From contig CAYFZO010000006.1 of assembly GCA_964347615.1 (NCBI GenBank), positions 4,126 to 68,125 of the forward strand: a DNA stretch of 64,000 nt, read 5' to 3'. A program made the translations under genes and the position numbers. The notes under the pieces are model-generated. The model did not search any database. It was not told the DNA's origin and saw only the letters and a list, made by a program, of their open reading frames with translations. This stretch comes from an uncultured Chromatiales bacterium (GTDB lineage Bacteria; Pseudomonadota; Gammaproteobacteria; Poriferisulfidales; Oxydemutatoraceae). This document shows, one piece after another, positions 13,416 to 51,024 of this stretch; within the stretch, counting starts at the first letter, position 1, and each line of letters begins with the position of its first letter.

Positions 13416-13423
13416 AATTACGC

Positions 13424-31260: not shown

Positions 31261-31370
31261 CGTGAGCTACTCGGCGTTTTCGCCCGCGCCGGCTGCTGAT
31301 GAGAGACGCCTTTACACTGAGGGCAGGCTTACGGGATAATCGCCGCAATTCAGAAAACACGGAGACAACG

Positions 31371-31883
31371 ATGGTTACAGAATGGACACGAAACGACGTT
31401 TGGCAGAATATGCTGGATGCGGAACGGCTTGTTCGATACTACGAAGTGATTTTAGATCGGTGCCAACGTAATTACATGCTGCCTCGTTTTATCCTGCTTC
31501 TCGGAATGACGGGCGTATTGATATCTTTGCTGGAATTGGTTCCGGAAGGTTACAAAGACGCCATCCAAGCCGTCTCTAGCGTCATGGTGATCGCGGCACT
31601 TGCTTGGGACTCTCATGCCAACTACGCAGGAAAGGCGCTGGTATTACAGCAGGTCAGCGTTGAATGCATCAAACTGCAAGTCGAATGGCGGGTGCTGTGG
31701 AACGCCATCGAGACTCATACCATTGAAGACGAGAAAGCGCGGGAAAAAAACGCTTGCTTAAGTCGCAGGATCGCTGCTGTAACCGTACGCCCCGGAGATG
31801 CCGGTGTCCGGGAAGACCGAAAACTCAACCGGAAGTGCGCCAGGGATGCATATAAAGTGATGGCGGGGCGGTATGCGGTGTAA
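31371..31883 (+). CDS. Small 2-TM membrane protein, a candidate SLATT-like effector
   Basis: An N-terminal helix is followed by two hydrophobic helices, 'FILLLGMTGVLISLLELV' and 'VSSVMVIAALAW', and then a helical tail. It lies 45 bp upstream of the SNF2 gene on the same strand. The start was chosen at the internal Met (31,371), which has a GGAGA ribosome-binding site. Confidence 0.35.
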   Translation: MVTEWTRNDVWQNMLDAERLVRYYEVILDRCQRNYMLPRFILLLGMTGVLISLLELVPEGYKDAIQAVSSVMVIAALAWDSHANYAGKALVLQQVSVECIKLQVEWRVLWNAIETHTIEDEKAREKNACLSRRIAAVTVRPGDAGVREDRKLNRKCARDAYKVMAGRYAV

Positions 31884-35186: not shown

Positions 35187-38100
35187 GTACAGAACAGACC
35201 AATGCCGATCTACCTGGATGGGATTCACTACGCCATGGTGGACTGTTGTTCGATGTTGCTCGGCTTAAAACACTTACCGAATTTATCCCCCCACGATTAA
35301 ACGAATACGTTGAACAGCAGCTACGCCACCAGGGAAGCTCTATATTGAACGAAACCGGCGACACCTCAACTTTCGTTACTTTCGTTTTAGAGCAAGTCTG
35401 CGGACTCGATGGTTCAACCGGCACTTGGTTACGCGGCAACAACGTTCCATCATCTTGGGGACGACGGGCGATTACCGGCGAGACCGTTAAACCTCGTCAT
35501 CTGTGGCAAGGACAACACGACGCGTTGCTACCAATATTCATAGACGACAAAAAACGCATCGGCATCGGCAAAGGACGTCGCACCATTAGCCAAGTGCTTG
35601 GTTGGCTTCGCGCTGGCAACAACCAACTTGCATTAATAACCAACGGTCGCCAATGGCGACTGCTGTTTGCCGGCCTCGACTATGACGCTTGGTGCGAATG
35701 GGATATGGATATGTGGTTTGAGGAGGGTGGGCTCTCGCCGCAAGTAACAGCACTGCGCACCTTGCTCAATTTTGAACTTTGGACTCCGAAATCCGAAGAC
35801 GCTCCACCACTCCTATTACAAGCGATTCGAGATACACGCAAAGGCCAAGCGGAACTCTCAGAGGAACTCGGCGAACAAGTGCGTAAAGCAGTCGAAAAGT
35901 TAATTCAAGGTCACAGCGAAGCACTTCGAGAGTACCACGATTCCGTTGCTCCTGCAGATATTTACCGTGCTGCTTGCCGCGTAGTAATGCGGCTCATAGT
36001 GATCTTGTTCGCCGAATCTCGGGACCTGCTACCTCGAGAAAATGCTCTTTACCACGGTAGCTACGGACTGAATGGACTGTTCGACCAACTCGAACACAGT
36101 GCCCACCATGGCGCGGACCTCGCGAACAGCTGGGCTGCATGGCCCCGCATACTGGCTCTGTTCAACTTAGTGCGGCAAGGATCTCATCACCCCGACTTAC
36201 CAGTAACAGCTTACGGTGGAAAGCTTTTCGCAACTGGGCGCCCAGATCCAGCGGATAGAGCATCCAAAGCAATCGATATCTTTGAACGCGAGAATCAAAG
36301 TGCATTATTTTCCGATCGAGACGTTCACAAGATGCTGAGATTGCTTACCCGCACGACCATCAGCATCCGCCAAGGACGTGGTGTGAGGAGGAGTAAGGCA
36401 CCGGTAGATTTTTCCGATCTCTCGTCTGAATACATCGGCATTCTCTACGAAGGATTATTAGACTATGAGCTTAAGACTGCTCCTGACGACGATTCGGTGG
36501 TCTTTCTGACCGTCGGCAATCGGCCAGCACTTCCACTATCGCGTTTGGAAAAAATGGAAGACGGTGCTATCAGAACCCTTTTTAAGTCTCTCAAGAAAAA
36601 GAAAGCGGTTACAGATGACGATACTTCCGAAGATAGCGAGCAAGAGAGCAAAGACGTCGAGCTGGAAAGTAAGGTTGACGAATTGTCTTTCGATGCCAAT
36701 GATGTAACGCTCTATGATAAAAATGACCAATTAGATATATCTCGGGCAGAAGCATGGGCACGTCGTGCCGTGCAAGTAGCGAAGCTAGTAAAAAAACCAC
36801 TTGTCGCGCGAGTTGTCCTACCAGGCGAATGGTATCTAGTCCGCTGGGGCGGCACTCGAAAAGGCTCTGGAAGCTTCTACACTCGACCGGGACTTGCTGT
36901 GCCAACCGTACAACGCACCCTACGCCCGCTTGCCTATGACCCACCTCCAAAAGCCAATGGAGCGCCAGATACAGCAGCGCGTGCGGAAAGTTGGATTCCG
37001 AAACTGCCGGAACAAATTCTAGACGTTAAAACATGCGACCCCGCCTGTGGATCAGGCACCTTTCCACTGGCAGCGTTACGCTTCCTCACCGATGCTTTAT
37101 ACAAATCTCTTCAACGTCATGAACGCATCAAGCGAGACGGTGAACGTTCGGTGATACGGTTACTACGCCTTCACCATGATAAAAATTCAACAACGGCTGG
37201 TGAATCTCCTTTCCACGAAGAACTTATTCCCTGCCCCCCGGACGACGGCGACTTTGAACCTCGATTAAAGGCGGTATTGCGCCGTCACGTAGTAGAGCGC
37301 TGTATCTACGCTGTAGATCTCGATCCGCTTGCCGTAGAGCTGTGTCAGCTGTCTCTGTGGATTGAAACAATGAACCGTGAACTGCCGTTCGGCTTCCTGG
37401 ATCACAAAATAAAGTGCGGCGACGCGCTACTCGGGGCATGGTTCGACCAGTTTCAACACTATCCTGTTATGGCTTGGAAAAACCGCGAGGGGGGCGATAA
37501 AAATCATTCAGAAGGCGTCCATTTTGAGAAAAACGTTCGTACGAAAAAAATCAAGGATTTTGTCAAAGATAAACTGACACCGGATCTAAAACTCTTTCTG
37601 CGAGGCCGCGATCTATTTCAGGAAGATACACTTGAAATAGCAACAACCGCTCACAAAGAATCACTTTCTGTGTTGGAGAAGATGCACAAAATGTCGGTGC
37701 AGGATACAGAGGAACGAGCGAGAATCTACCACCAGAACTTTTTGGGCAGAAAAGCATGGAGCCAAATCAAAGATGCAATGGATCTTTGGTGCGCTTGCTG
37801 GTTCTGGCCGGTAGACAAGATTGAACAGGCGCCTTTACCAAGTAACTTCGCCAAGCCACCAGGCGAGACGCTCGCTGTCGCTAAACAAACAGCGAATAAA
37901 ATGCGATTCTTCCACTGGGAACTGGAATTTCCAGACGTGTTCCAAGAGCAAGGAGCAGGCTTTAGCGCGATTTTAGGTAACCCCCCGTGGGATGCTCCAA
38001 AGCCTATCTCCAAGGAGTTTTTTTCAGATATTGACCCTCTCTACCGTACCTATGGCAAACAGGAAGCTTTGCAATATCAATCCCGCTGCTTCAAAGACGG

Positions 38101-40558
38101 TGATGCCGTTGAACGTCGCTGGCTCGATGACAATGCCGATTTCCGTGCCCGGGCAAACTTTTTCAGATACGTCCGGGGACCGTTCGGTGATCCAGAAGAA
38201 ACCACCGACGGTAAAAACAGATTTGTGGTTATCCGAGGCAAAACCAATCAGGACCTACATGAAAATTGGCGGCAAGCGCGCAACCACACTGTTAGCTTCA
38301 GCGATCCGAAACATCCATTCCGTCATCAAGGCTCGGCGGATATCAATCTCTATAAACTATTCCTCGAATCTGCCCATGCCTTGTTGGGATTTGGCGGAAG
38401 GTTGGGGTTCATCGTTCCTTCAGGGGTATATTCAGATGACGGAACACAGGCGCTTCGAAAGCTTTTTCTTGACAATTGCCGATGGGAGTGGCTGTTTGGC
38501 ATTGTAAACCGTGAAAACATTTTCCCCATTCATAAAAACTACAAATTCAACCCCGTAATCATTGAAAAAGGCGGAAACACGGAAGCAATCCAAACTGCTT
38601 TCATGCAACGCAATCTCGAAAACTGGGAAAATGCCGAGAGCATCTCTATTTCTTACCCTCAAACGTGGATAAAGCAGTTCAGCCCTAAAAATCGAACTTT
38701 CGTGGAAATTCAATCACAACGTAATTTGGAAATTTTGGAAAAGATATACAACCACAGCATTCTACTAGGTGATAACAGTTCCTCTGGATGGGGCGTTCGT
38801 TACTTTCGTGAATTCGATCAGACAAACGACTCAGAACTCTTCCCACCTCGCCCAGAGTGGGAGAATAAAGGGTATAGACCCGACGAGTACAACCGCTGGT
38901 TGCGAGGCGACTGGCAGCCGATTGAAAACCTCTTGGAGTCTTTAGATATTAATCCAGCCCAGGCCGAACCAGCAGAATTAGAACTTGAAGAGTGGTTGCT
39001 TCACGAGACAAGTTCAGAACGTCAAAAAACCGAAGTCCGACTCGTACGCGGCTATTTGCTCAGACCCGGCGACGTCGCCAGGACCGTTTGGAGTCTACGC
39101 TGCGCGCAGCCACCCTACGACAAACTGCCAATTCCGCGTTCGAAAGTACCTGCTGGAATAATTCTCTCACGAGAGGGTGATACCTATATCCACGTGGATA
39201 AAATCGAAGATATAGCCCTCCCACTTTACGTGGGAAAGATGATTTACGTCGGTGATTGGAACGCATCCACGATTCAGTTAAACGAGTTGAAACAACACAG
39301 CCCCAATCCTGAATACCTTTTAGGTATAAAAGACCTCCGACATAACCGCCAAACAAACAACCGCATCGTTTTCCGTGATGTATCACATGCAACCAATGAA
39401 CGTAGCTTCGTAGCGACTCTCATCCCTGGATTATTTCCCTGCGGGAACAAATTGCCGATACTAAGCTTGCCACCCTACAACCCTGTTCAAAGTCTTGAAT
39501 TAATCAATGCTTTGGTAAGTTTCGGATTCGACTGGGTTGTTCGACAGCGTTTCGCTGGAAATAGCCTCAATTGGCACATTGTCGAACCTTGCCCAGTGCC
39601 GCGCCCGGGTACTAGCACCAACAGAACGATAACGCAGTTGGCAAGGTTATTACTCGGAAACATTCTCTTTTCAAGCGACTGGCTGCAACTTTCGAATCTG
39701 GTTTCGCAGCCTCATTTTTACCCGTGTACTTTCAAAGAAAGGCTTCGTATTACTATTATGCTTGACGCAGTAATGACCGCCACCATGGGGCTTTCGGGGT
39801 CGGATTTTCGACGTATCCTGGCAGGGTGTGATTACCCGGCTGGGAACATCATTGACAAGCAACTAAAAGGTTTCTGGCGCGTGGACAAAGACAAAGCCCC
39901 TGAGCTCCGCCAAACTGTCCTGTCTCTAGTTGCTTTCCAAGACCTCGAAGAGCGAATTAAAGCAGCCAATAACAACGTGGAAAAGGGGATTGATTCTTTT
40001 CTTGCACAAAATCACGGCGAAGGGTGGATGCTGCCGGAAACGTTACGCCTTGCCGACTACGGCCTCGGCCATGACAATCGCGCGAAACAACCACAACCCG
40101 TCGCCAGCCGTCTCCCCGGCCCGCGCTTCTACGATTGGCAACTCGCTCAAAGCCCCAAAGAAGCTTGGCAAGAATGTCATCTCCACGCCCGAAATTTACT
40201 CGGCGCCGATGGTTACGCCCAACACGTTCTGAAACTGATTGAACAACGCGTCTCTAACGATGAAGAGTTTCTTGACCTTCTAACGCTACCGTTTGTGCGT
40301 GATTTCATGAACGAGGATGGTTACACGACGACTATAATCAAACTTCGGGCAAAAAAAATCCTAGACGAGACCGCCTACACCCAACTTCTCGATCATCTTC
40401 GAGCACGTAACCTCTTGGACGAAGTCCGTTATCGTCGCCAACGTGAACGTATTACTTCCACGCCGGAACAGGAGCCTCTGCCGAGAGTAGCCGAGCTCCC
40501 GGCAGACTACGATACCGAAACGCCCTCAAAAGAGAATCAAACAAAGATGTTCGAATAG
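35183..40558 (+). CDS. Giant (1,791-aa) gamma-class N6-adenine DNA methyltransferase (DrmMI/PglX-like) with large N- and C-terminal extensions of unknown function
   Basis: Motif I is 'DPACGSGTFPLAALRFL' at about residue 617. 'IYAVDLDPLAVELCQLSLWIE' follows. Motif IV, 'ILGNPPWD' (NPPW), is at about residue 931. The TTG start overlaps the SNF2 stop. Confidence 0.8.
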   Translation: MSTEQTNADLPGWDSLRHGGLLFDVARLKTLTEFIPPRLNEYVEQQLRHQGSSILNETGDTSTFVTFVLEQVCGLDGSTGTWLRGNNVPSSWGRRAITGETVKPRHLWQGQHDALLPIFIDDKKRIGIGKGRRTISQVLGWLRAGNNQLALITNGRQWRLLFAGLDYDAWCEWDMDMWFEEGGLSPQVTALRTLLNFELWTPKSEDAPPLLLQAIRDTRKGQAELSEELGEQVRKAVEKLIQGHSEALREYHDSVAPADIYRAACRVVMRLIVILFAESRDLLPRENALYHGSYGLNGLFDQLEHSAHHGADLANSWAAWPRILALFNLVRQGSHHPDLPVTAYGGKLFATGRPDPADRASKAIDIFERENQSALFSDRDVHKMLRLLTRTTISIRQGRGVRRSKAPVDFSDLSSEYIGILYEGLLDYELKTAPDDDSVVFLTVGNRPALPLSRLEKMEDGAIRTLFKSLKKKKAVTDDDTSEDSEQESKDVELESKVDELSFDANDVTLYDKNDQLDISRAEAWARRAVQVAKLVKKPLVARVVLPGEWYLVRWGGTRKGSGSFYTRPGLAVPTVQRTLRPLAYDPPPKANGAPDTAARAESWIPKLPEQILDVKTCDPACGSGTFPLAALRFLTDALYKSLQRHERIKRDGERSVIRLLRLHHDKNSTTAGESPFHEELIPCPPDDGDFEPRLKAVLRRHVVERCIYAVDLDPLAVELCQLSLWIETMNRELPFGFLDHKIKCGDALLGAWFDQFQHYPVMAWKNREGGDKNHSEGVHFEKNVRTKKIKDFVKDKLTPDLKLFLRGRDLFQEDTLEIATTAHKESLSVLEKMHKMSVQDTEERARIYHQNFLGRKAWSQIKDAMDLWCACWFWPVDKIEQAPLPSNFAKPPGETLAVAKQTANKMRFFHWELEFPDVFQEQGAGFSAILGNPPWDAPKPISKEFFSDIDPLYRTYGKQEALQYQSRCFKDGDAVERRWLDDNADFRARANFFRYVRGPFGDPEETTDGKNRFVVIRGKTNQDLHENWRQARNHTVSFSDPKHPFRHQGSADINLYKLFLESAHALLGFGGRLGFIVPSGVYSDDGTQALRKLFLDNCRWEWLFGIVNRENIFPIHKNYKFNPVIIEKGGNTEAIQTAFMQRNLENWENAESISISYPQTWIKQFSPKNRTFVEIQSQRNLEILEKIYNHSILLGDNSSSGWGVRYFREFDQTNDSELFPPRPEWENKGYRPDEYNRWLRGDWQPIENLLESLDINPAQAEPAELELEEWLLHETSSERQKTEVRLVRGYLLRPGDVARTVWSLRCAQPPYDKLPIPRSKVPAGIILSREGDTYIHVDKIEDIALPLYVGKMIYVGDWNASTIQLNELKQHSPNPEYLLGIKDLRHNRQTNNRIVFRDVSHATNERSFVATLIPGLFPCGNKLPILSLPPYNPVQSLELINALVSFGFDWVVRQRFAGNSLNWHIVEPCPVPRPGTSTNRTITQLARLLLGNILFSSDWLQLSNLVSQPHFYPCTFKERLRITIMLDAVMTATMGLSGSDFRRILAGCDYPAGNIIDKQLKGFWRVDKDKAPELRQTVLSLVAFQDLEERIKAANNNVEKGIDSFLAQNHGEGWMLPETLRLADYGLGHDNRAKQPQPVASRLPGPRFYDWQLAQSPKEAWQECHLHARNLLGADGYAQHVLKLIEQRVSNDEEFLDLLTLPFVRDFMNEDGYTTTIIKLRAKKILDETAYTQLLDHLRARNLLDEVRYRRQRERITSTPEQEPLPRVAELPADYDTETPSKENQTKMFE

Positions 40559-40596: not shown

Positions 40597-41112
40597 CTAA
40601 CCACCAATCTCTCTGGTGAATCGATTAATTATATCTTCGTTGATGTGCGTAGGGCTAGATTCATGCATTTGGTTAGCAACCGCCAAAGCAGTATGCTGCG
40701 TAAGAACACCAGCAGTAACCAAATCCACCATTAGGGTAAGCCCGAAACGAGTTTTGACGCGATGTTTTTCGCAAAGTCGCTGAAGTGCTCTATCGTTTGT
40801 GACGCACGTCCATCCTCTTTCTTTACAGGTAACGAGGCAAAGGCGGTCATTAAATGAAACGTTTGACTCGACTTCTCCAGCTGCAAGCATTTGTTCTGTC
40901 TCAACTTCGACGACCTCGATACCATAACGACGACACTGAGACACTGATACTCCTCGGACCTCGTCGAGCACGTGCGTCAAAACGGCTATTTGCCCTACGG
41001 ACTGAGTTACGAGTTTTAGAACCTCTAGCTTGGAATCACGGTAGTCTATAAGAACGTCCGCATCCGCAAGAAGCCCAGTTTGTAAGGCCCCGCGTTCAAT
41101 TTGTCCACTCAC
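40597..41112 (-). CDS. PIN-like nuclease-fold protein (DUF4411-like), partner of the HTH-ImmA regulator
   Basis: The N-terminus 'LLADADVLIDY' is a PIN-like first-Asp strand. Further acidic residues follow ('THVLDEVRG', 'VTNDRAL'). Its start overlaps the upstream HTH-ImmA stop. The ImmA-plus-DUF4411 pairing is a recurring defence-island dyad (from memory). Confidence 0.45.
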   Translation of the reverse strand: MSGQIERGALQTGLLADADVLIDYRDSKLEVLKLVTQSVGQIAVLTHVLDEVRGVSVSQCRRYGIEVVEVETEQMLAAGEVESNVSFNDRLCLVTCKERGWTCVTNDRALQRLCEKHRVKTRFGLTLMVDLVTAGVLTQHTALAVANQMHESSPTHINEDIINRFTREIGG

Positions 41113-42229
41113 GCGCCTGTTTCCTCATCTCCTCTCGAGTAATCCTCAATATTTCGGCAGCGCGCCCAAGCGAAATATGCTGCTTCTCGACCGCCCTCCG
41201 CACGAGACGCGATAGGCGATTCTCAACGAAATCGTTATAGGAAAGACCTTCTGGTTCTTCAGATCGGCGCCAGCTCCAAGCAAATTCTCCCGCTTCCAGA
41301 GCGAAAGGCTCGTCGACCTTGCGGAGGGTTTTGCCAAAGCGAGCACGATGCTGCCGTTGAAACGTACGCCAAATTTCAGATTCTGCGCGCTCCGATTCCA
41401 CCAAGCGGTAAAGAACTGTCTTATAACTTACTCGGAAAATTCTCTTGACTTTAAGGACACGAATCAAAAGCGGATGTCCATAAGTTTCATTCCATTCACT
41501 GTTAAATGCTTCCTCCGGCATTAGAAACTCACTTGCGAACGCATCTGCTTCACGTTCTGTATCTGCAGAAAGATCGGTCTCATCACGTTGATACTCCCCA
41601 GGGTGAAGCAATAGATGTCCCAACTCATGTGCTGCGGTAAATATCCAACGCTCCACCGATATTCGGTCCCACCTATTGACAACAATCGCTGGCCCGCCAT
41701 CTTGTTCCCCAGCGCTCAACCCAAAGAAAGAATCCCGCTTTTTGTCCAGAAGCAAGAGTTTTACTCCATTTTTCTCAAGTAATCCACAGATGTCCCGCAC
41801 CGGTTCCTTAGGCCCTAACTCAGCAATCTCACGTACTTTTTGGGCAGCACTTTCAGGTCCTGCACTACGAAAAATCTCAGGGTTAAATTTGAATGGACAC
41901 TGCTCGCCCAGGCTGACTTCCAGACTCTTATAGTCATCCAGCCATTTTGAAACTTCCGCCAAAATTTGCTCTCTCCCATGCACTTGGGTCTTGGCGCGAA
42001 ACCGTACACTCTTGAGAGGACGTACGGGAGTCACGAGAACACCGACCGGAACCGCCAGCGCCTTTGCCAACGCAGTAAGTGTTCCCTCCCGCGGGATGAC
42101 TACACCCCGCTCAATCTTGCCAAGCGCCACCCGTGAAAGCCCCGCCTTATCGGCAAGCTGTTCCTGAGTCAGCTCCCGATCCAAGCGTAACCGCGCTACG
42201 TTTGCGGCAATCCCCGCTCTGTCTTCCAT
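41096..42229 (-). CDS. XRE-family HTH fused to an ImmA/IrrE-family Zn-metallopeptidase
   Basis: The HTH is 'LTQEQLADKAGLSRVALGKIERG'. The HExxH motif is 'FTAAHELGHLLLH'. It is divergently oriented from the Ubl operon. Confidence 0.8.
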   Translation of the reverse strand: MEDRAGIAANVARLRLDRELTQEQLADKAGLSRVALGKIERGVVIPREGTLTALAKALAVPVGVLVTPVRPLKSVRFRAKTQVHGREQILAEVSKWLDDYKSLEVSLGEQCPFKFNPEIFRSAGPESAAQKVREIAELGPKEPVRDICGLLEKNGVKLLLLDKKRDSFFGLSAGEQDGGPAIVVNRWDRISVERWIFTAAHELGHLLLHPGEYQRDETDLSADTEREADAFASEFLMPEEAFNSEWNETYGHPLLIRVLKVKRIFRVSYKTVLYRLVESERAESEIWRTFQRQHRARFGKTLRKVDEPFALEAGEFAWSWRRSEEPEGLSYNDFVENRLSRLVRRAVEKQHISLGRAAEILRITREEMRKQAREWTN

Positions 42230-42252: not shown

Positions 42253-42281
42253 TTGACAGGCGTTCACCAGTAAGGTATCAT
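42253..42281 (+). promoter_or_regulatory. Candidate sigma-70 promoter for the Ubl/E2/JAB/E1/helicase operon, with TTCGAA repeats immediately upstream
   Basis: The sequence is TTGACA, 17 nt, TATCAT (42,253-42,258 and 42,276-42,281). It lies in the divergent intergenic region between the HTH-ImmA gene and the Ubl gene. 'CTTCGAACTTCGAA' at 42,229-42,246 is a possible operator. Confidence 0.4.
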
Positions 42282-42406: not shown

Positions 42407-42658
42407 ATGGTTGATCCAGACAAAGTAATCCTCGAAATTGCGGCACCGAAAGGGCTGTTCAAAGGGGAGTTCGAAAAAACTGTTACCGTTCAACAGGTAA
42501 TCGACGCAGTTATAGAAAAACAACAATTGCAGCGCGGCGATGTTTTTGAGCTGTTTTATAAAGGTAAGCAGCTTGAACCAGTAAAACAAACGCTGGCTGA
42601 GTTTAATCTTGCAGGAGTAGTTCAGCTCGAGCTCGTTGCTACCGGTCAAGGAGTATAG
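42407..42658 (+). CDS. Small ubiquitin-like (beta-grasp) protein
   Basis: 83 aa with a GGGAGGGA ribosome-binding site. It is the first gene of an operon that also encodes E2-like, JAB/MPN and E1-like proteins. The C-terminus reads '...LELVATGQGV'. Confidence 0.5.
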   Translation: MVDPDKVILEIAAPKGLFKGEFEKTVTVQQVIDAVIEKQQLQRGDVFELFYKGKQLEPVKQTLAEFNLAGVVQLELVATGQGV

Positions 42659-42664: not shown

Positions 42665-43123
42665 ATGGCAACGGTATCTGAGTTGATTCTCGGTGAAGAG
42701 TTCGGTCATTTGCGCGAGATAGCCGAAGCTCGTAACTGGCCTCTCAGTCAAGTCAACAAGCGTACATTTAAGCTCACGCTTACAGCACGTGATGATGCCC
42801 GCTTCAGCTTATTGGTTAGCTGCAGCGATTACCCGCAAAAACCACCGGCTTGGCACTGGTGTAATCCTGAAACGGATGCTCTGGACCAAAAAAGCGATAC
42901 GCCGAAAGGGACTGGAGGATATTTTGACCAGTCGGGTTGCATTTGTGCGCCTTGGAACAGGCTCGCCTATCAGCAAGAGAACCCTGAAGGCCCTCACCCA
43001 GATTGGAATCTTGTGAACTGGAGGACAAATGATTGGACAAAAGGATGCACCACGCTGTCCGCAATGGCGTCACGTATCGCGGTCGAACTCATGAGCGATC
43101 GTTACCGAGGCCGGGAAATCTGA
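42665..43123 (+). CDS. E2-like (UBC-fold) candidate conjugating protein
   Basis: 152-aa protein lying between the Ubl and JAB genes. 'QSGCICAPWN' is a candidate catalytic Cys loop. The assignment is mainly by operon context. Confidence 0.35.
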   Translation: MATVSELILGEEFGHLREIAEARNWPLSQVNKRTFKLTLTARDDARFSLLVSCSDYPQKPPAWHWCNPETDALDQKSDTPKGTGGYFDQSGCICAPWNRLAYQQENPEGPHPDWNLVNWRTNDWTKGCTTLSAMASRIAVELMSDRYRGREI

Positions 43124-43128: not shown

Positions 43129-43650
43129 ATGCTTGAACGAATAAAAAAGTTGTTTTTTCGTAAACGAGTTTTCAAACCTGGTCCGCCAGAACCACCTAGA
43201 TTGATTTTAGCTCAATCCAGTGTGACTGCTCTACGGTCTTGCATGAAACCGGAAATTCGAAAAAAACACGAAAGTATCGCTTACCTTCTGGGTCAGACTA
43301 ACTCTACGACAACTTTGGTTGTGAGTGTAATCCGACCTCAGGCCCAAACCACACCGGGGAGCTTCAAGGTCGAGTCCGTAGCAATGATACGAATTATGCG
43401 TGCAGCTGTCCGTCTTGGACTTCAGGTAGTTGGACAAATACATACCCATCCTAGGAAAGCATTTCACAGCGAAGGAGACGAGGAAGGAGCACGTATTGCC
43501 TATAGCGGCTACGCTTCGATCGTGTTGCCTGATTATGGGCGACGCCTCCCCTCGTTCAAAGGAGCAGTTGCCTACATGTTCCAGACTAACAGCGGCTTTA
43601 TACCAATCGCTCCAGATTGCTTCGTGATCGTGCCGGGAAAAACATCGTGA
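43129..43650 (+). CDS. JAB/MPN+ (JAMM) metalloprotease / deubiquitinase-like
   Basis: The JAMM motif is 'GQIHTHPRKAFHSEGDEEG' (H-x-H-x7-S-x2-D). An upstream Glu lies in 'FKVESVAMIR'. Confidence 0.7.
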   Translation: MLERIKKLFFRKRVFKPGPPEPPRLILAQSSVTALRSCMKPEIRKKHESIAYLLGQTNSTTTLVVSVIRPQAQTTPGSFKVESVAMIRIMRAAVRLGLQVVGQIHTHPRKAFHSEGDEEGARIAYSGYASIVLPDYGRRLPSFKGAVAYMFQTNSGFIPIAPDCFVIVPGKTS

Positions 43651-44996
43651 ACGGGGAAGACTGGAGAAGGGAACGTGACAGTCGTTCCTTGCTCTATGCG
43701 GGGCGAGTACTCGACCGTAATCGGTGGGTGTCGCTGTGTCCTGATCCACGTTACGTGTCGCGTTACGATGGGCAAGTGGCGCTTCTGACCGCGGCGAATC
43801 TCCTTGGTCGAATGACCCCCAGTATTGCGTTGGATATTCCTGATTCAATCCCCATCGTTGATTCTCTACCTAATGCCGGGAAGAACTTGCGTGACGTGTT
43901 GCTTGACCAGCTTCATGAAGCAGATCCTTCTGGGAGTTTCTGTCGCCGCTCATATAAACCGGATGACTACATCATCAGATTCGGTAAGACCGGCGGCGTC
44001 AATACAGTGCACGGGTCGGGCTGGAAAATGTACTGCGGCCCAAGCCCATCACCTTTGGCAGAAACCGAAACGGTAAATCCAATTGGCCCAGCAATGGCTT
44101 CTATTCTTGCTGTAAGTGAAGCTTTCCGAACAAATCTTACTTCACCTCCCGGACAATACACTTTCGATGCTCTAACTTGGACTTCTGACGTAAAAGATGA
44201 AAGTGATGCTCCACTTCCTACTCAGTCGAAGCTCGGAGAAGTTTGGGTTGTTGGTACTGGCTCAGTTGGAACAGCGGTACTCTATTTTTTGAGCCTTGCT
44301 ACACGGAATTTTTCCGCGGTTCTTTTCGACATGGATATAGTCGAAATTCACAATCTGGATCGATCTCCTATATTCACGAGTAACGATGCGGATAATAAAA
44401 CAAACAAAGCAATAGCGACAAAAAGATATCTAAACCAAGTAGGAGTTTCTAACGTCAAAGCCGAACCACACGCCCTTGATGAATCCGATATCTGGAAAAA
44501 CCGTCAGCCAGGTACCCCCGACGTTTTAGTCCCGACCGCAAACGAGCGTAATGTGCGTTCCCTTATCGAAAGTTACTTTCCGCCAATCCAAGTTTACGGA
44601 ACCACGGGGCAGAACGGACAAGCCACAATGATTCGTCATATTCCCCCGCATGATCCATGTTCGCTTTGCCTATTTCCTGACACTGACCACGCACCAACGA
44701 GTTGCGCGATCGGTAAAGTTGAGAATGAAAGTAATGAAAAGAAAATTGATGCGGCGCTCCCTTTTCTATCCTTTGCTGCAGGAGCAATGGCCGTCGCCGA
44801 AATTCTAAAACTCAGCCTGCCTGATTATCCAGCCAATAGAAGTAACCGAACAATCTTGTACACAGGCTGTCCACCCCGTTTCACATCTGGACAATTATCT
44901 TTCAGAGATGGTTGCCCATGCCGGCAACGTAACTACGACCTTTATCGAAAAATAACCGAGAACACCTGCTTTTCCCACTTGATGCGTTTCTCATGA
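43617..44996 (+). CDS. E1-like ThiF/MoeB-family activating enzyme
   Basis: The Rossmann nucleotide-binding motif is 'VWVVGTGSVGTAVLYFL', with 'FDMDIVEIHNLDRS' after it. A C-terminal Cys pair lies in 'PHDPCSLCLFPDTDH...SCAIG'. Its start overlaps the JAB gene. Confidence 0.7.
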   Translation: MLRDRAGKNIVNGEDWRRERDSRSLLYAGRVLDRNRWVSLCPDPRYVSRYDGQVALLTAANLLGRMTPSIALDIPDSIPIVDSLPNAGKNLRDVLLDQLHEADPSGSFCRRSYKPDDYIIRFGKTGGVNTVHGSGWKMYCGPSPSPLAETETVNPIGPAMASILAVSEAFRTNLTSPPGQYTFDALTWTSDVKDESDAPLPTQSKLGEVWVVGTGSVGTAVLYFLSLATRNFSAVLFDMDIVEIHNLDRSPIFTSNDADNKTNKAIATKRYLNQVGVSNVKAEPHALDESDIWKNRQPGTPDVLVPTANERNVRSLIESYFPPIQVYGTTGQNGQATMIRHIPPHDPCSLCLFPDTDHAPTSCAIGKVENESNEKKIDAALPFLSFAAGAMAVAEILKLSLPDYPANRSNRTILYTGCPPRFTSGQLSFRDGCPCRQRNYDLYRKITENTCFSHLMRFS

Positions 44997-45027: not shown

Positions 45028-48000
45028 ATGTATTATCGGCTGGTTTGGAACTTTCAAAGTGCTGTATTTCCAATGGCTTTAAACCCCATCGCTTACACGG
45101 AAAGCGTCGTCCGTAGTTTTCTGCGTTACCAACTTACGGCGTACCCTTTCGCTGACCAAAGATTGCACGAACAGATGTGCAAATTGCTGTCTCTTAACGA
45201 AACTCGTCAGTCTCCCCTCCTCAAAGGCCCCTACGTCAGCTTATCGCGCTCATTCCGGCAAGGCGCTTCAGTCGCGTCTTTAGTGAAAGAAAGGCTGCTA
45301 CACCCTCACTTACAACAACGTATTCGCAACGAAGTTACACATCTCTATAGTCATCAAGAAAAAGCGATCCGTGCTATTGCGAAGAAGCAGACAACCCTCG
45401 TATCCACCGGAACCGGTTCAGGCAAAACCGAATGCTTCCTCTATCCCATCATTAGCCAATGCCTGAAACTCAGGGATGAAAAAGCATCCCCCGGTATTAG
45501 CGCGGTCATTGTCTATCCGATGAACGCATTGGCGGAAGATCAGCTCATGCGATTACGCGGCCTGTTGGCAGGCACTGGAATTCCATTTGGGATTTATGTA
45601 GGCAAGACACCTGAGAATGAAGCCGATGTGACTGGCGTTAAATTGCATGATGGGGCGTCACGGGATGATTACGAAACCCGGCTGAAACGAGCACAACAAG
45701 AAAGCAGCGGCGAGACGGTTTATCCAGCAGAAGAGGTTTGTTCACGGGAGGTTATGCGCACAGAAGGCAAACAGCCACGAATTCTCTTAACCAACGTGAA
45801 GCAGCTTGAGCTGCTGCTGACGCGGCAGATAGATATTCAACTGTTCGCTAATGCTCGACTGGATTTTCTGGTATTCGATGAGGCTCATACGTTCACTGGG
45901 GCGCTAGGAGCGGAAACAGCCTGCCTAATCCGGCGCCTGCGTGCATTCTGTGACATCAATATAAACCACACTACATGCGTCGCTACCTCAGCAACGATCG
46001 TTGATAAGGAAGAGCCTGACGCCGCCCGAAAATTCGCCGCACGATTTTTCGGCGTTCCACGCGAAGCAGTAACTACAGTTAATGAAGACTACGAAAAAGA
46101 CGTTTGGGAAGAGCCACGGTTTGTTCCCACTGCTCCCCCTGAAAAAGCTGCCGATATTCTCAGCAACTGTATTGAGGCAGTTGAAGACGAAGACAATTCA
46201 AACGCTGAAAAAATAGAGGCAATCTATCGTGCGTTAACCGGCGAGGGCCTGCCCGAAAGAAACTGGCCGGAAGCCCTGCACAATGCTATGTCTCGCAATG
46301 ATCTGGTTTTTCGCTTGAACGAGGAGCTCCATACCCCGAGGGAGCTGGCGGAATTACCAGCAGCACTTGAACGGCATATCGACCGCCCTGTAGCTGAGGA
46401 AGAAATTCTTGCTTGGCTGACGTTAGGGGCGGCAGCACGCAAGCAAGGTCGACCTTTATTACGCCCCATCGTACATAACTTCGTACGCGGCATCAGCGGC
46501 GCCGTGGTGACATTTCCTAAAGATATGAATAGCCCGAAGCTATGGCTCGCTGCAAAAGACGAGGGTGAGATTGAACCTGACACGTCTGAAGATAAACATG
46601 CGCATTTTCCTGTAACGACCTGTACTACTTGTGGACAGCACTACTTCATTGCGTTCCTAAAAGACTTCTCTTTCACCGGAAACGTGCCTGAGGGCGGTGA
46701 AACCAGCTCCACCGGCCCTTGGTGGTCTTCGAAAGAAGAAACTTTGGGTGGTAAACGCGTTGTTCTAGTAGACAAATTGATTGGAGAAAGTGACGAAGAC
46801 GAGGACACGTCTCCTCATGCGAAGATGGCACCACTCTATTTCTGTCGCCGATGCGGAACAGCACACCTTGAAACACAGTCACGATGCCTTTGCTGTGGAT
46901 ATGAAAATGGTACGGTTCAGCTGCACGCAGTCCGCCAGAAGGAAAAAAATCCTGGCAAACTGGCCAGCTGCCTTTCTTGTGGTTCTACCAGTCGTCGACT
47001 CGGCGGGGATTACCGCGAACCAGCCCGGCCCGTGCGTGCAGTTAACGTGGCGGACGTGCACGTTCTCACCCAAGACATGGTGCACCACGCAGAACGACGT
47101 CGTCTGCTCGTATTCTGCGATAACCGGCAGGACGCGGCATTTCAAGCTGGCTGGATGAAAGACCGCGCCCGACGTTTCAGGTTACGAGCGTTAATGATGG
47201 AAAACATCAAAAAAAGCGCGTGCTCCGTAGGCGATTTGGCCGGGCATCTCGATAAGTTAATGGAAAAAGATGAAACCCTTTCACGAGCGTTGCTTCCTGA
47301 GGTATGGCGCGTTGCACGTCGAGAAGACAGCGGTACCCGCCACCAACAGGAACGCTACAAGTTTCTTCGCTTCCAAGTATTGCGCGAAGTTACACTGCCG
47401 TCACGACAAGCGGTTGGTCTCGAGCCATGGGGCCGCATGAAAATCGAATACACGGGGCTCGACGCGGTGCTACCATGGATTCAGAAGCATGCTCATTCCC
47501 TAAGCCTCCCCCCAGATGGCTTGCGGGAAGGCGTCGCAAGCGTACTCGACTACTTGAGACGAAGAGGGGTGCTGTATGACCCTGAGAATGAGATATTTAC
47601 GAAATACTGGGGAAAAGGAGACCTTGAGATCCAGCGTGGGTACTTACCCGACTCTATTCGACCCAACTCCACCAAGCTACAGCGCCAAGCAGATGAAAAA
47701 CGGGAAGTAATTATTCAATGGATAAGCGACAGGGGCAGCCCAACGGTACCCCAAATCGTCAAGAAATGGGGGGCAGAGAAAAACGCAATCAAACCACTTT
47801 TGGAAAGCTTGTTTCAATTCTTAAAGGAAAACAAACTACTAGTGCCTGTACGACTTAAAGGTTACAAAGGCCGCGCGCTCCCAAAGGTACACGGCGTCTA
47901 CCAAGTAAATAGCGACAAATTACTGTTGACTCCGAACAAAGGCATGAGACGTTGTCGTAGCTGTCGCCGCACTACCACTCGGAACTTACCTTACGACCAC

Positions 48001-51000
48001 TGCCCTGCCCGGAATTGCAACGGAACTTTGGAATGGGTGCCGGAAGATCCAGACAACTATGATTTGCATCTGCTCGATAGCGCATACGAAATGCTGCGTC
48101 CGGAAGAACACACTGCTATGGTCCCATCTGAGGACCGCGAACGTTTTGAGAACTTGTTTAAGGGTGAATCAGAGGCAGTAAATTGTCTGGTGTGTACCCC
48201 AACGTTGGAACTAGGAATTGATATCGGGCGACTCGACTCAGTCCTGATGCGCAACGTACCCCCGTTGCCGGCAAATTATTGGCAGCGCGCCGGACGCGCC
48301 GGACGGCGACATCGCATGGCGGTGAATGTCACCTATTGCCGACCAGTCTCACACGACCGTGCCTACTTCTCAGAGCCGCCTAAATTGCTGGCAGGCAGGA
48401 TTGACCCTCCGGCATTTAATCTAAGAAACGAAGTGATGGTCGAAAAACACGTTCACGCAATAATCATCGCCTCTTTGTATCGCTATTGTCATGATAACGC
48501 TAGACCAGAAGCGGAACGTAACACGATACAGGAAACTTTGCTCAATTGTTTTCCCTCGTTTATCTCGCCTTATCTATTCGATGACAATGAAGAAGTACGG
48601 ACAACGCTGTTCGGCTTCACTTCCTTACGCGATTTAGTTCAGGAAAACTATCAAGCATTGGTCACCGACGTGCAACGTGTGTTTGAGCAAGGATGGCCAG
48701 AGACGGATGCCGACGTTGTAACCCAAGAAGCTCTTTCTGCCTACGTCGCCAAATTCGCCGATAACTTGGAAAACGTCGTCAAACGTTTGCAGCGCCGTCT
48801 GCGTTGGGCTATGAACCAGATTCAGCGCCTCAATAATCACCGTCAGAGCCAGGGAACGCTTTCCCGTGAGGATGAAACGCTATTCCGCCGTTGCGACAAT
48901 CTGGTAAAACGACTAAAAGGCACGAGCTGGAGACGACGAAGCCGAGCGGAAGGGCACTACGACTCGAACACGTTCAGCGTGCTCTCAGCGGAGGGATTCC
49001 TGCCGGGTTACGGCCTGGAAGTCGGCTCGATAAGAGGTGAAGCGGAAATTCCACCCTGGCTCCCCGGAGCTAAGAGTTTTTCTTTACCTCGACCGCCTGC
49101 AATCGCTCTACGTGAATACGTTCCTGGCAATCTCATCTATGCCAACGGACAACGTTTTGTCGCGCGTCACTTTCGCCGCGAGGCAGGCGAGGAATATTCA
49201 GAGATGCCGTGCTACGAAGTATCAATTGACCACCAAGCCGTTAAGCCCGTTAGTTTAAATGCACCCTCGTCATTAGGCGGATACGTCCTCCAAACAATAT
49301 CCGTCTGTGATACGGACTTAATTCATACTTCACACATATCCGACGAAGAAGAATTTCGGTTTCAATTAGGCTTAGCTATTTACGGATTGGAAATCAAGCA
49401 GCACAACGGCGGAATCTCATATCGTTGGGGAGAAAAAACCATGCAACATCGCCGTGGAGTACATATACAACTTGTCAACGTAGGGGCTTTGCTCGCCATC
49501 CGCAAAGGAGAAATTGGTTATCCTGTCTGCACGGTATGCGGCCAAAGTATCTCCCCTATTTCCTCTGACAGACAGCACCAAGAGTTTGTTAAAGATCACA
49601 AGGAACGTTGTGGACGTGAGCCAAAATCTATCGGTTTCTATACCAACGTAGTTGCCGACGCGCTTTCGCTGCCTGAGTGTGACAACTTGGAAATCGCGTA
49701 CAGCGTCTTAGAGTCTTTGCGCTTCGCCGCTACTAGAGTACTTGACATGCATACGGAAGACTTGCAGGTGCTTGTTATAGGACACGTTGAACGAGACGGC
49801 GTAGATGCTTTGTTATGGGATCCAATGCCTGGTGGATCCGGGCTGCTTGACCGCGTGTGTGAACGCTTTGATGAAATCGTGCAAGCAGCTAAAGAAATCG
49901 TTAGTGATTGTCCCGCAGTATGTGACTCATCCTGCATAGATTGCCTTCAGACGTTCCGCAACGCTTATTACCATGAGCACCTCAATCGCCATACAGCCCA
50001 AACACGATTGGAAGAATGGGGAGAACAGCTGGTACGCCGTCACGATATTCCACCGTTGCAACAAAACATTGCCTCCAGCAAAAATGCAATGCCGGTTAAC
50101 GAGGCAGAAACCAAGCTGCGGCACCTGCTACTCGCCGCTGGATTTGACGAAGGCATCCGAGACGAACAGATTCAGTTAGATCGAGCAATAGGAACTACAA
50201 CACCTGACGTAATCTACCGAACGGAAACCGATGGAACAGACGAAGGTGTATGTATTTATTTGGACGGATTGAGTGCACATATCCATGGCAACCCAAAAAC
50301 CGCTGAGAAAGACAGGGAAATCCGGGATTGGTTACGCAATAGAGGATATGAGGTCATTGAAATCACCGCTAACCAGTTAGACGATGAAGATGCAATGACA
50401 CGTCACTTTCGCCGCCTCGCAAGATATTTGCAGATGCCAGATACATTAAGCCGGCTGCGTGATGATCACTCGTGGTTTCGCCAATCTAAAAAGGCATCAG
50501 TTTCTCCTTTGCGATTGGTTACACCGACACCTGAAACGCGTTATGTCACCTGCGTGCCTCTAGTCCCCTTGCAGATTGCCGCAGGGACGTTTGGCGATCC
50601 CAATGCCGCTCCCGACGAATCCGAATGGCAGTGGGTAAAACTTAACTCAGTACGCACGCTGCGCCCTGGAATGTTTGTTGCTGCCGTAACTGGAAAATCT
50701 ATGGAGCCAAAAATACCCGATGGCTCATACTGCCTTTTTTCCGGCCCTGTCACTGGGACGCGGCAAGAAAAAATCGTGCTTGCTCAAATGCACGACACGA
50801 TTGACCCTGAAACCGGGGCCAGGTTTACTGTAAAACGCTATCGGAGCACGAAAGGGGAAAACGACGATGGCTGGCGACACATCAAAATCACCCTTGAACC
50901 TATTAACCCTGACTATCAACCGATTGAGTTAGCGACGGATAACGAGAACTCCGTCACAGTAGCCGCGGAACTGGTTAGCGTTCTTGGCCAAGACGCTCCT

Positions 51001-51024
51001 GTAGATGATACGGATTCTCTCTAA
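45028..51024 (+). CDS. Giant (1,998-aa) multidomain protein. Domains in order: DEAD/DEAH SF2 helicase with multiple Zn-ribbon insertions, a DUF1998 (MrfA/DrmA-B)-like region, a DUF559/Vsr-like nuclease-fold region, and a C-terminal LexA/S24 peptidase domain.
   Basis: Motif I 'VSTGTGSGKTECF' is at about residue 126, motif II 'VFDEAHTF' at about 281, and motif VI 'QRAGRAGRR' at about 1,086. CxxC pairs are present ('CTTCGQ', 'CRRCG...CLCCG', 'CLSCG', 'CRSCRR...CPARNC', 'CTVCGQ...C'). 'GVCIYLDGLSAHIHGNP...EIRDW...YEVIEI' is at about residue 1,740. The C-terminus reads 'PLVPLQIAAGTFGDP' followed by 'TGKSMEPKIPDGSY...KR', the S24 Ser/Lys dyad. Confidence 0.8.
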   Translation: MYYRLVWNFQSAVFPMALNPIAYTESVVRSFLRYQLTAYPFADQRLHEQMCKLLSLNETRQSPLLKGPYVSLSRSFRQGASVASLVKERLLHPHLQQRIRNEVTHLYSHQEKAIRAIAKKQTTLVSTGTGSGKTECFLYPIISQCLKLRDEKASPGISAVIVYPMNALAEDQLMRLRGLLAGTGIPFGIYVGKTPENEADVTGVKLHDGASRDDYETRLKRAQQESSGETVYPAEEVCSREVMRTEGKQPRILLTNVKQLELLLTRQIDIQLFANARLDFLVFDEAHTFTGALGAETACLIRRLRAFCDININHTTCVATSATIVDKEEPDAARKFAARFFGVPREAVTTVNEDYEKDVWEEPRFVPTAPPEKAADILSNCIEAVEDEDNSNAEKIEAIYRALTGEGLPERNWPEALHNAMSRNDLVFRLNEELHTPRELAELPAALERHIDRPVAEEEILAWLTLGAAARKQGRPLLRPIVHNFVRGISGAVVTFPKDMNSPKLWLAAKDEGEIEPDTSEDKHAHFPVTTCTTCGQHYFIAFLKDFSFTGNVPEGGETSSTGPWWSSKEETLGGKRVVLVDKLIGESDEDEDTSPHAKMAPLYFCRRCGTAHLETQSRCLCCGYENGTVQLHAVRQKEKNPGKLASCLSCGSTSRRLGGDYREPARPVRAVNVADVHVLTQDMVHHAERRRLLVFCDNRQDAAFQAGWMKDRARRFRLRALMMENIKKSACSVGDLAGHLDKLMEKDETLSRALLPEVWRVARREDSGTRHQQERYKFLRFQVLREVTLPSRQAVGLEPWGRMKIEYTGLDAVLPWIQKHAHSLSLPPDGLREGVASVLDYLRRRGVLYDPENEIFTKYWGKGDLEIQRGYLPDSIRPNSTKLQRQADEKREVIIQWISDRGSPTVPQIVKKWGAEKNAIKPLLESLFQFLKENKLLVPVRLKGYKGRALPKVHGVYQVNSDKLLLTPNKGMRRCRSCRRTTTRNLPYDHCPARNCNGTLEWVPEDPDNYDLHLLDSAYEMLRPEEHTAMVPSEDRERFENLFKGESEAVNCLVCTPTLELGIDIGRLDSVLMRNVPPLPANYWQRAGRAGRRHRMAVNVTYCRPVSHDRAYFSEPPKLLAGRIDPPAFNLRNEVMVEKHVHAIIIASLYRYCHDNARPEAERNTIQETLLNCFPSFISPYLFDDNEEVRTTLFGFTSLRDLVQENYQALVTDVQRVFEQGWPETDADVVTQEALSAYVAKFADNLENVVKRLQRRLRWAMNQIQRLNNHRQSQGTLSREDETLFRRCDNLVKRLKGTSWRRRSRAEGHYDSNTFSVLSAEGFLPGYGLEVGSIRGEAEIPPWLPGAKSFSLPRPPAIALREYVPGNLIYANGQRFVARHFRREAGEEYSEMPCYEVSIDHQAVKPVSLNAPSSLGGYVLQTISVCDTDLIHTSHISDEEEFRFQLGLAIYGLEIKQHNGGISYRWGEKTMQHRRGVHIQLVNVGALLAIRKGEIGYPVCTVCGQSISPISSDRQHQEFVKDHKERCGREPKSIGFYTNVVADALSLPECDNLEIAYSVLESLRFAATRVLDMHTEDLQVLVIGHVERDGVDALLWDPMPGGSGLLDRVCERFDEIVQAAKEIVSDCPAVCDSSCIDCLQTFRNAYYHEHLNRHTAQTRLEEWGEQLVRRHDIPPLQQNIASSKNAMPVNEAETKLRHLLLAAGFDEGIRDEQIQLDRAIGTTTPDVIYRTETDGTDEGVCIYLDGLSAHIHGNPKTAEKDREIRDWLRNRGYEVIEITANQLDDEDAMTRHFRRLARYLQMPDTLSRLRDDHSWFRQSKKASVSPLRLVTPTPETRYVTCVPLVPLQIAAGTFGDPNAAPDESEWQWVKLNSVRTLRPGMFVAAVTGKSMEPKIPDGSYCLFSGPVTGTRQEKIVLAQMHDTIDPETGARFTVKRYRSTKGENDDGWRHIKITLEPINPDYQPIELATDNENSVTVAAELVSVLGQDAPVDDTDSL

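Follow-up and report, generated by a model that had tools for sequence, protein, structure and literature searches.

The window analysed here, a 64,000-nucleotide stretch of the genome of an uncultured Chromatiales bacterium (contig CAYFZO010000006.1, positions 4,126 to 68,125 of the forward strand), is a defence island. It contains the gene armC, which encodes a YprA-family helicase-nuclease that ends in a LexA/UmuD-type S24 autoprotease tail. The protein is classified as ARMADA Type I, with the gene order armA-armB-armC; the ARMADA family was defined computationally in 2025 (Bell et al., preprint, PMC12458937). The LexA-type tail is a part of armC that lies outside the ARMADA description and constitutes a new element. 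Its predicted self-cleavage apparatus is intact and strongly conserved at the C-terminus of restriction-type enzymes. In our assessment, there is an even chance that ArmC acts as effector, alongside ArmA and ArmB, in an ARMADA Type I system, and that its tail is an off-switch responding to filaments of RecA on single-stranded DNA (ssDNA) by exposing a degron that ends in -AA. Membership of ARMADA as such adds little, and the interest of the locus lies in the tail and in its recurrence.

A single long open reading frame (ORF) of 1,998 codons occupies positions 45028-51024 of the plus strand. The first ATG of the ORF is located at 45028, 15 codons before a conserved methionine at 45073, and the consensus of the homologues opens with MALNPIAY. 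Counted from the conserved methionine, armC (45073..51024, +) encodes 1,983 residues, as does the identical protein P0001 from a metagenome contig in ENA. Residue numbers used here refer to the 1,998-residue frame that opens at 45028. An initial annotation, made from the sequence of the window, had placed the feature at 45028-50480. Its start coincides with the opening of the ORF, but the true stop is at 51024, about 180 codons further on, and because of the early end the last ~180 residues, including the Peptidase_S24 domain, were left out. The number of database proteins that match ArmC at E≤1e-10 is 3,133, far beyond chance, and the best 120 of these are 63-78% identical to it over nearly the full length.

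The S24 tail (50551..50982, +) forms the last ~150 residues of ArmC. Residues 1864-1978 match Pfam Peptidase_S24 with E-values of 8.5e-9 when the whole protein is searched and 4e-10 for the isolated fragment. The alignment of a C-terminal profile to the LexA sequence by hhalign has a probability of 92.5%, and pairs the segment GKSME with GMSMK of LexA (Ser1891 with S119) and FTVKRY with VTVKRL (Lys1936 with K156). A LexA-like Ala-Gly site, PLVPLQIAA/GTF, is positioned 39 residues ahead of Ser1891, which makes Ala1852-Gly1853 (codons 50581-50586) the predicted scissile pair. The tail is borne by 113 of the 120 closest ArmC homologues; of ~114 sequences with the tail, 113 retain the alanine of the site and 113 the serine, 108 the glycine, and 111 the lysine. 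BLASTP of the tail against Escherichia coli LexA gave no signal, and sequence searches of the PDB with the C-terminal profile and the S24 fragment returned nothing useful. A broader S24 profile produced weak matches in the PDB, to LexA C-domains only. When AlphaFold2 was provided with 19 close homologues, the S24 part stayed unfolded, with a predicted local distance difference test score (pLDDT) of 25-46; the fold became apparent once the alignment comprised 87 sequences taken from a range of partner proteins. By the sequence matches and this model, the ArmC tail has the S24 fold.

The ArmC tail differs from its relatives in context and in sequence. In the repressors LexA and CI of phage lambda, the S24 domain is placed behind a helix-turn-helix (HTH) DNA-binding domain, whereas in ArmC it ends a 200-kDa helicase-nuclease. 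The tail clade is distinct, with 40-66% identity among its members and ~20-25% to LexA, and additional residues are inserted in the ArmC tail around its "DPETG" loop. In a rough neighbour-joining tree of ArmC homologues, the tail marks a crown clade within which tail-less members are scattered. In other ArmC relatives, the protein stops directly behind the Vsr domain or has a different tail of ~110 residues instead. The text and supplements of the ARMADA paper, its figures and part of Table S1 aside, contain none of the terms S24, LexA, peptidase, UmuD, and SOS (PMC12458937).

The alternative ~110-residue tail ("...PDEVDW....GRVSG.KA...W...") takes the place of the S24 domain in loci L020, L027, L031, and L037. 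In L020, L031, and L037, a conserved gene of ~700 codons is located directly downstream of the ArmC homologue.

Sequences related to the tail recur at the C-terminus of unrelated restriction enzymes, which is new relative to the ARMADA paper. An exhaustive HMMER search with the 179-residue tail (window positions 50470-51021) against 1.84 billion representatives gave 1,742 matches, of which 980 have E≤1e-10 and 127 have E≤1e-30. The best 150 matches (P0121-P0270) are 36-69% identical to the query, including the linker, and share the consensus RYVTCVPLxxLxAAAGxFG. Only about a dozen of these 150 are ArmC-like, and in the remainder the tail closes proteins whose N-terminal parts are of quite another kind. 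The Pfam partners found in 47 tail representatives are Type_ISP_C (9), ResIII (9), MZB (6), Helicase_C (6), Eco57I (5), N6_Mtase (4), HNH_4 (3), Methylase_S of HsdS (2), and PLDc_2 (2), together with single occurrences of HSDR_N, T1RH-like_C, MmeI, a Schlafen-type helicase, RE_LlaJI, and UvrD_C. The tail is joined to proteins of the HsdR, HsdS, Type ISP/IIG/MmeI-like, Res, PLD-helicase, Schlafen-like, UvrD-like, and methyltransferase-HNH types. No HTH repressor domain was found in the 47 representatives among the 25 most frequent of the 32 matched Pfam families. Of 131 representatives, 75 have AAA ahead of the predicted scissile glycine, 12 have VAA, 8 IAA, and 2 LAA. A literature search provided no description of S24/LexA-like fusions to DUF1998 or to restriction enzymes. 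That the tail clade consists of portable C-terminal modules, which self-cleave in response to RecA filaments, expose an ssrA-like -AA degron, and thereby serve as a general means of restriction alleviation, is a tentative generalisation that we consider somewhat improbable.

Four S24-tailed methylases (P0144, P0147, P0152, and P0159) contain a further domain of ~190 residues after the S24 domain ("...DRDFLK.QFLASL.GR.W......FARW.GFRRTG..."). A tblastn search of plasmids with the tail gave one match, in an unannotated record from Halomonas sp. PA16-9 (megaplasmid NZ_CP040452.1; L082, 5959-8429). There, the homologue of the S24 tail is a separate 159-residue ORF (7950-8429) that overlaps the end of a 686-residue ORF by 70 nt, which may be due to a split gene or a frameshift.

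The part of ArmC that precedes the tail can be divided into a superfamily 2 (SF2) helicase core with an insertion, a zinc-binding region, and a nuclease domain. The RecA1 half of the core (45325..46017, +) matches Pfam DEAD (2.8e-21) and ResIII, and contains motifs I (GSGKT, residue 130), Ia (PMNALA, 164), II (DEAH, 284), and III (SAT, 321). Motifs V (TPTLELGID, 1057) and VI (QRAGRAGR, 1086) belong to the RecA2 half (48115..48357, +), which matches Pfam Helicase_C over residues 1030-1094 (4.1e-11). The two halves are separated by an insertion of ~700 residues (46018..48117, +) with cysteine clusters at residues 532, 606, 620 (CLCC), 648, 976, and 992. The initial annotation had described the wide separation of the motifs and the length of the insertion correctly, and its count of at least five clusters is borne out by the six that were located. 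The PADLOC DruE3 models align over residues 39-734 and reach into the insertion. Helicases of ARMADA and Druantia carry BrxA-like, zinc beta-barrel, and MarR-like domains at the insertion positions, and in ARMADA Type I a coiled-coil HTH follows RecA2 (PMC12458937). The insertion in ArmC from the window agrees in size and position and holds the six cysteine clusters.

The MZB/DUF1998 zinc-binding domain (49717..49947, +, residues 1564-1640) was identified by Pfam MZB with an E-value of 4.8e-9 and a score of 37.2 bits against a cut-off of 24.2, and has a cysteine cluster at residues 1628, 1632, 1636, and 1639. A DUF1998-like module had been proposed at about residue 1,500; the domain is present, but it lies ~100 residues further on, and the CxxC at residue 1501 is a separate zinc module upstream of MZB. 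The profile checks suggested for DEAD, Helicase_C, and DUF1998 (as MZB) all gave matches above the curated cut-offs, as did Peptidase_S24. A YprA/MrfA-like helicase with a fused DUF1998 domain in one polypeptide, as had been claimed, is what the joint presence of DEAD, Helicase_C, and MZB on the same protein establishes.

The C-terminal nuclease (50095..50427, +, residues ~1690-1800) was assigned to the Vsr/DUF559 fold of PD-(D/E)xK enzymes by fold comparison. The AlphaFold model of this segment, with pLDDT values of 70-93, matches the Vsr-fold structures PDB 3hrl and 3r3p, both of which Bell et al. also report as matches for ArmC (PMC12458937). The putative catalytic residues D1727, D1746, H1753, D1762, and E1778 are invariant in the best 120 homologues, and the nuclease is predicted to be active. 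The proposed DUF559/Vsr-like fold was recovered in this comparison of models, but not in the profile test suggested for it: HMMER gave no match to PF04480 or PF03852 at E≤10, with either the whole protein or the isolated fragment. The PLD motif HxKx4D is absent from all reading frames between 28 and 53 kb, in agreement with the initial annotation.

Two genes upstream of armC on the same strand complete the ARMADA Type I set. The product of armA (31929..35186, +; 1,085 residues) is a BrxHII/RapA-like SNF2 helicase (PADLOC DrmD 8e-202, BrxHII 1.9e-70; Pfam SNF2-rel_dom and Helicase_C). The start of armB (35183..40558, +; 1,791 residues) overlaps the stop of armA by 4 nt, and its product is a PglX/Type IIG-like N6-adenine methyltransferase (PADLOC REase_MTase_IIG E=0, DrmMI 2e-126; Pfam Eco57I 9.7e-21) with a GNPPW motif. 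The initial annotation had missed these DrmD- and DrmMI-like genes at 31929-40558. The PADLOC models gave no match to DrmB or DrmC among the neighbours of armC, and none to the Druantia partners DruA-D, DruH, or DruM/F/G among ten neighbouring proteins. Because armA and armB are present and DrmB, DrmC, and Druantia partners are not, the system was assigned to ARMADA.

The assignment is consistent with a census of 80 related loci from species-representative genomes, which were searched with the window proteins. Of the 38 loci whose upstream sequence covers 5 kb or more, 27 encode ArmB upstream of the helicase and on the same strand, and an ArmA-like gene likewise precedes the helicase in the same orientation in related loci. 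A 15-member cluster of apparent downstream genes consisted of frameshifted pieces of ArmC and was left out. The homologues in L019, L031, L033, and L041 (47-53% identity over ~1,800 residues) group with the window protein in the neighbour-joining tree, and Supplement 1 of Bell et al. 2025 (PMC12458937) gives the contigs of these four loci the label "ARMADA Type I helicase". The listed relatives and the tree provide indirect support for placing ArmC, within the YprA tree, in the clade of ARMADA Type I. ARMADA Type II adds ArmD, a GajB-like helicase with a RelE domain (PMC12458937). PADLOC and Pfam identified no ArmD-like gene after armC in the window, and there is no conserved downstream gene in the related loci. 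Type II was rejected, since the locus lacks ArmD as well as an EEP domain and a second Vsr domain.

In common with ARMADA Type I, the window encodes a YprA-family helicase with a zinc-rich insertion, fused OB, CON, and DUF1998 domains, and a C-terminal Vsr nuclease predicted to be active. It also shares the operon of BrxHII-like SNF2 helicase and PglX-like methylase without ArmD, and the armA-armB-armC order, which the paper notes for some lineages. In contrast to ARMADA Type I as described, ArmC from the window has the LexA-type S24 tail after the Vsr domain, and the armB-armC junction is split by 4.4 kb of nested genes.

The core of the mechanism that we propose for ArmC is derived from work on DISARM, Druantia, and ARMADA Type II. 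Host DNA would be marked by ArmB. ArmC, an SF2 motor of the YprA type with many zinc modules and a putative OB-CON-MZB canopy, would load onto ssDNA-containing ends or replication intermediates of unmarked DNA, translocate along the DNA, and cut it with the C-terminal Vsr-fold nuclease. Upon DNA damage, RecA-ssDNA filaments would stimulate self-cleavage at Ala1852-Gly1853, which would free the tail and leave an enzyme ending in ...IAA (...AAA in the family consensus). By analogy with LexA, this end could act as a ClpXP-type C-degron. Restriction would be shut down while the host repairs a chromosome that contains unmethylated DNA, and the enzyme would have a built-in restriction alleviation. 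The damage-responsive promoter of the cassette nested between armB and armC probably drives armC too.

RecA-ssDNA filaments stimulate the self-cleavage of LexA, UmuD, and CI, and we infer by analogy that cleavage of the ArmC tail is also RecA-stimulated. The predicted product end ...IAA resembles the ssrA and LexA ...VAA ends. In lambda CI and UmuD, the residue before the scissile alanine is not known to be alanine, and the constancy of an alanine at this position in the tails may reflect more than the geometry of cleavage. Cleavage of LexA-like proteins exposes a ClpXP C-degron beside the site (PMC5742171, citing Neher et al. 2003). Methylation-guided restriction enzymes, those of Type I among them, need restriction alleviation when unmodified host sites arise through damage and repair, and for EcoKI it is provided by ClpXP (PMC4231737). 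Since the partner enzymes of the tail are methylation-guided and the -AA product end is degron-like, the tail is most likely an off-switch. If RecA triggers its cleavage, many methylation-guided restriction systems would carry a DNA-damage sensor of their own, which bears on how they spare the host when repair or recombination yields unmodified sites. A compact, portable, damage-triggered, self-cleaving degron module would also be a possible tool.

Several points weigh against the proposed off-switch and its placement in an ARMADA Type I system. The direction of switching is deduced by analogy, from the types of partner enzymes and the -AA end, and the two alanines may be no more than what the cleavage site requires. 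Some LexA-like proteins self-cleave without RecA (PMC7101444). Where the tail is attached to HsdS or to enzymes that contain a methylase, its cleavage would also remove modification, which could be harmful. Tail-less ArmC variants occur in the same clade, and the tail is therefore dispensable for the core function. Neither ArmA nor ArmB is encoded within 10 kb in 11 of the 38 loci, and PADLOC, with its models from 2023, labels armC as DruE. An anti-phage role of the Type I locus is suggested by analogy with ARMADA Type II, the sole type with experimental support: the Type II system from E. coli protects against 13 of 80 phages, requires all four genes, and is non-abortive. Co-transcription of armC with the nested cassette is deduced from consensus scans of the sequence.

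The same cleavage-competent S24 features could alternatively form an on-switch, in which the tail keeps the Vsr nuclease or the helicase inactive or dimeric, and RecA bound to phage ssDNA or replication intermediates induces the cleavage that licenses degradation. The position of the tail, only ~70 residues beyond the nuclease domain, would suit such an arrangement, as would the engagement of ssDNA-containing replication intermediates by the related DruE (PMC13192584 and 10.64898/2026.05.13.724758). Some loci (L057) also have a CapH-CapP-like regulator of the DNA-damage type directly upstream of armC. However, activation by removal of the tail is hard to rationalise for partners that are mostly constitutive and methylation-guided, HsdS included. 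The conserved -AAA, -VAA, or -IAA product end resembles a degron, and tail-less ArmC variants are common, which is at odds with an obligatory activation step. We consider an on-switch unlikely, although it is the main rival of the off-switch.

It is less probable still, and in our view quite doubtful, that the tail is not cleaved and is only a dimerisation or RecA-filament-binding domain, which sets the oligomeric state of ArmC or brings the enzyme to recombination intermediates. LexA, CI, and UmuD' dimerise through their S24 C-terminal domains, which makes such a role conceivable. A structural role, however, needs none of the serine, the lysine, and the Ala-Gly pair, and these are kept in more than 95% of the homologues and across unrelated partners.

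The 4.4-kb interval between armB and armC contains genes for a VapC-like PIN protein and for a regulator resembling CapH-CapP, followed by a Bil-like operon that encodes a ubiquitin-like protein (Ubl), E2, JAB, and E1. This nested cassette is new relative to both the ARMADA paper and the initial annotation. The VapC-like PIN-domain gene (40597..41112, -; 171 residues; Pfam PIN 1.4e-7) has orthologues with 62% (L011) and 47% (L057) identity at the same junction. The regulator (41096..42229, -; 377 residues) resembles a CapH-CapP fusion (Pfam HTH_3 5.5e-13, Peptidase_M78 2.6e-17; PADLOC RmrA 3e-38, capP 1.5e-18, capH 8.6e-7), and is divergent from the Bil-like operon. In the operon, the Ubl gene (42407..42658, +; 83 residues) occupies the place of BilA; its product ends in ...GQGV and matches ubiquitin (2.2e-4) and Rad60-SLD (2.9e-4), both below the curated cut-off. 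It is followed by genes for an E2-like protein (42665..43123, +; 152 residues; PADLOC BilB 1.4e-6, no Pfam match) and a JAB/JAMM deubiquitinase-like protein with the motif HTHPx6Sx2D (43129..43650, +; 173 residues; Prok-JAB 1.1e-7, BilC 1.4e-14). The E1 gene (43647..44996, +; ORF opening at 43617) encodes 449 residues in the public contig (ThiF 9.6e-17, BilD 3.2e-17), and its BilD_N domain was taken from the precomputed annotation of the identical contig.

The gene order Ubl, E2, JAB, and E1, the combination of BilD_N and ThiF in the E1, and the intact JAMM motif are shared with BilABCD. Unlike BilABCD, the cassette is nested in another defence operon and has a single fused protein as its regulator, and it matches the Bil models weakly (1e-6 to 3e-17). 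Lau et al. 2022 found a vapC-like gene and a CapH-CapP fusion located upstream of DISARM and "ubiquitin-related" operons, in divergent orientation to them, and reported that DNA damage activates CapP. The divergent HTH-M78 regulator with its vapC-like gene in the window has the same arrangement as this type of regulation.

A sigma-70-like promoter, TTGACA-17-TATCAT (42253..42281, +), matches 11 of 12 consensus positions; it was recognised by its consensus only, and is overlapped by a promoter-like site on the minus strand. The stop of the E1 gene is separated by 76 nt from the conserved start of armC on the same strand, and a consensus scan revealed no terminator-like site between them. Because of the near-consensus promoter before the Ubl gene and the lack of a terminator-like site, we propose that armC is probably co-transcribed with the Bil-like operon under a damage-responsive repressor. 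A regulator of the DNA-damage type is, in that case, probably located upstream of both the ubiquitin-like system and armC.

The same features, namely the single strand, the 76-nt gap without a terminator-like site, and the shared upstream promoter-like site, could mean that the helicase and the Ubl-E2-JAB-E1 proteins form one new system, in which Ubl conjugation regulates or cooperates with the helicase-nuclease. A different E2-E1-JAB fusion, located in the same position behind the orthologous regulator pair in L011, points the same way. However, Ubl, E2, JAB, and E1 are absent from all other loci (80 fetched, tblastn E≤1e-4; the only match, L001, is the window contig itself), the cassette is missing from every other one of the ~60 loci related to armC, the conserved partners of ArmC are ArmA and ArmB, many loci have armB abutting armC, and the junction elsewhere holds unrelated cargo. 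Operons of the BilABCD type are known as stand-alone systems (10.1101/2023.09.04.556158). A joint system is highly improbable in our estimation. Since the Bil-like genes are absent from other loci, the cassette is a nested independent system rather than a partner of ArmC, and the candidate role of obligate partner was rejected. The PADLOC models, which the initial annotation had suggested for a neighbourhood census, gave no drmB or drmC among the neighbours of armC. Immediately upstream of armC is the Bil-like operon, which the annotation did not contain.

At the armB-armC junction, other defence systems have landed repeatedly. Its length ranges from ~100 bp to more than 9 kb across the loci, and its cargo includes DRT1a (L008), IetS with a SIR2/pAgo-like gene (L010), a HEC-01A-like ATPase (L018), a ZacB-like gene (L021), PDC-M26A (L024), and the E2-E1-JAB fusion behind the orthologous PIN and regulator genes (L011).

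The orthologous pair of PIN and HTH-M78 genes (47-70% identity) is located upstream of armC in three loci: the window (40597-42229), L011 (3714-5376), and L057 (~6600-8271). In two of the three, the pair precedes different ubiquitin-like operons. In L057, it is within ~1.7 kb upstream of, and divergent from, an armC that has no S24 tail.

The initial annotation had compared the protein with MrfA and DrmA and had called its architecture distinct. Membership of the YprA/MrfA family was confirmed, but by sequence ArmC is much closer to Druantia DruE than to DrmA (PADLOC DruE1 3.4e-118, DruE3 8.9e-108, DrmA weak at 1e-14), and its best sequence match in the PDB is DruE (9tu7, 2e-46). The distinct architecture is real relative to DISARM; it is not undescribed, since it matches ArmC of ARMADA Type I (PMC12458937), and what lacks a description is the tail of the LexA type, together with its repeated occurrence on restriction enzymes that are not related. 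Conventional DISARM was rejected, since DUF1998 is fused and DrmB and DrmC are lacking; a separate drmB or drmC nearby, the alternative raised in the initial annotation, was not matched by PADLOC among the neighbours. The Druantia label given by PADLOC was rejected since the partner genes are missing.

Class 1 DISARM and the window have in common genes of the DrmD and DrmMI kinds, a helicase from the YprA family, and a DUF1998 module that goes with it. However, it has its own drmB for DUF1998 and a PLD nuclease, DrmC, whereas in the window both DUF1998 and the Vsr nuclease are fused to the helicase. DruE of Druantia types I-III has in common with ArmC the large YprA-type helicase and the insertion architecture; Druantia III has PLD nucleases and types I and II have an inactivated Vsr domain, whereas the putative catalytic Vsr residues of ArmC are invariant. 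That armC is a Druantia DruE, as its DruE1 (3e-118) and DruE3 (9e-108) matches would suggest, or belongs to a conventional DISARM with a long DrmA, as the adjacent DrmD and DrmMI homologues might, is barely credible given that Druantia partners, DrmB, DrmC, and any PLD motif in the scan are missing, that DUF1998 is fused and not a separate gene, and that the 2023 PADLOC models predate ARMADA.

The GC content of the window is 47-52% across 30-52 kb and 56% in the 28-30 kb bin, as opposed to 60-66% in the flanks, and no tRNA genes were found in the window. Two ORFs that border the ARMADA genes are not conserved in the related loci: one of 194 residues before armA (31299-31883, +), with a faint match to SLATT_5 (0.002), and one of 398 residues after armC (51296-52492, -), to which no PADLOC or Pfam family was assigned. 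Close to the low-coordinate end of the window, a gene for an OLD/AriA/GajA-like ATPase (455-2107, +; 550 residues) is followed, with overlapping stop and start, by a gene for a 1,038-residue protein whose sole match, a Type III Res-like one, is faint; the pair (455-5223, +) may be another two-gene defence system. A CRISPR array (6543-~8800) consists of at least 32 repeats (GCTTCAATGAAGCCGGCGCAACGTTGCGCCGGATTT...) with a periodicity of ~72-75 nt, and the repeats are degenerate toward the low-coordinate end. A Type I-G (I-U) cas operon (9381-18136, -) encodes a Cas4-Cas1 fusion, Cas5/6g, Cas7g, Cas8g, and Cas3g. Near the cas genes is a second M78-peptidase regulator-like gene (19770-20927, -; RmrA 2.8e-19, capP 1.1e-15). 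A HEC-01 pair (29141-31097, +), composed of an AAA_21 ATPase (1e-191) and a DUF4276 protein, is located immediately upstream of the ARMADA genes.

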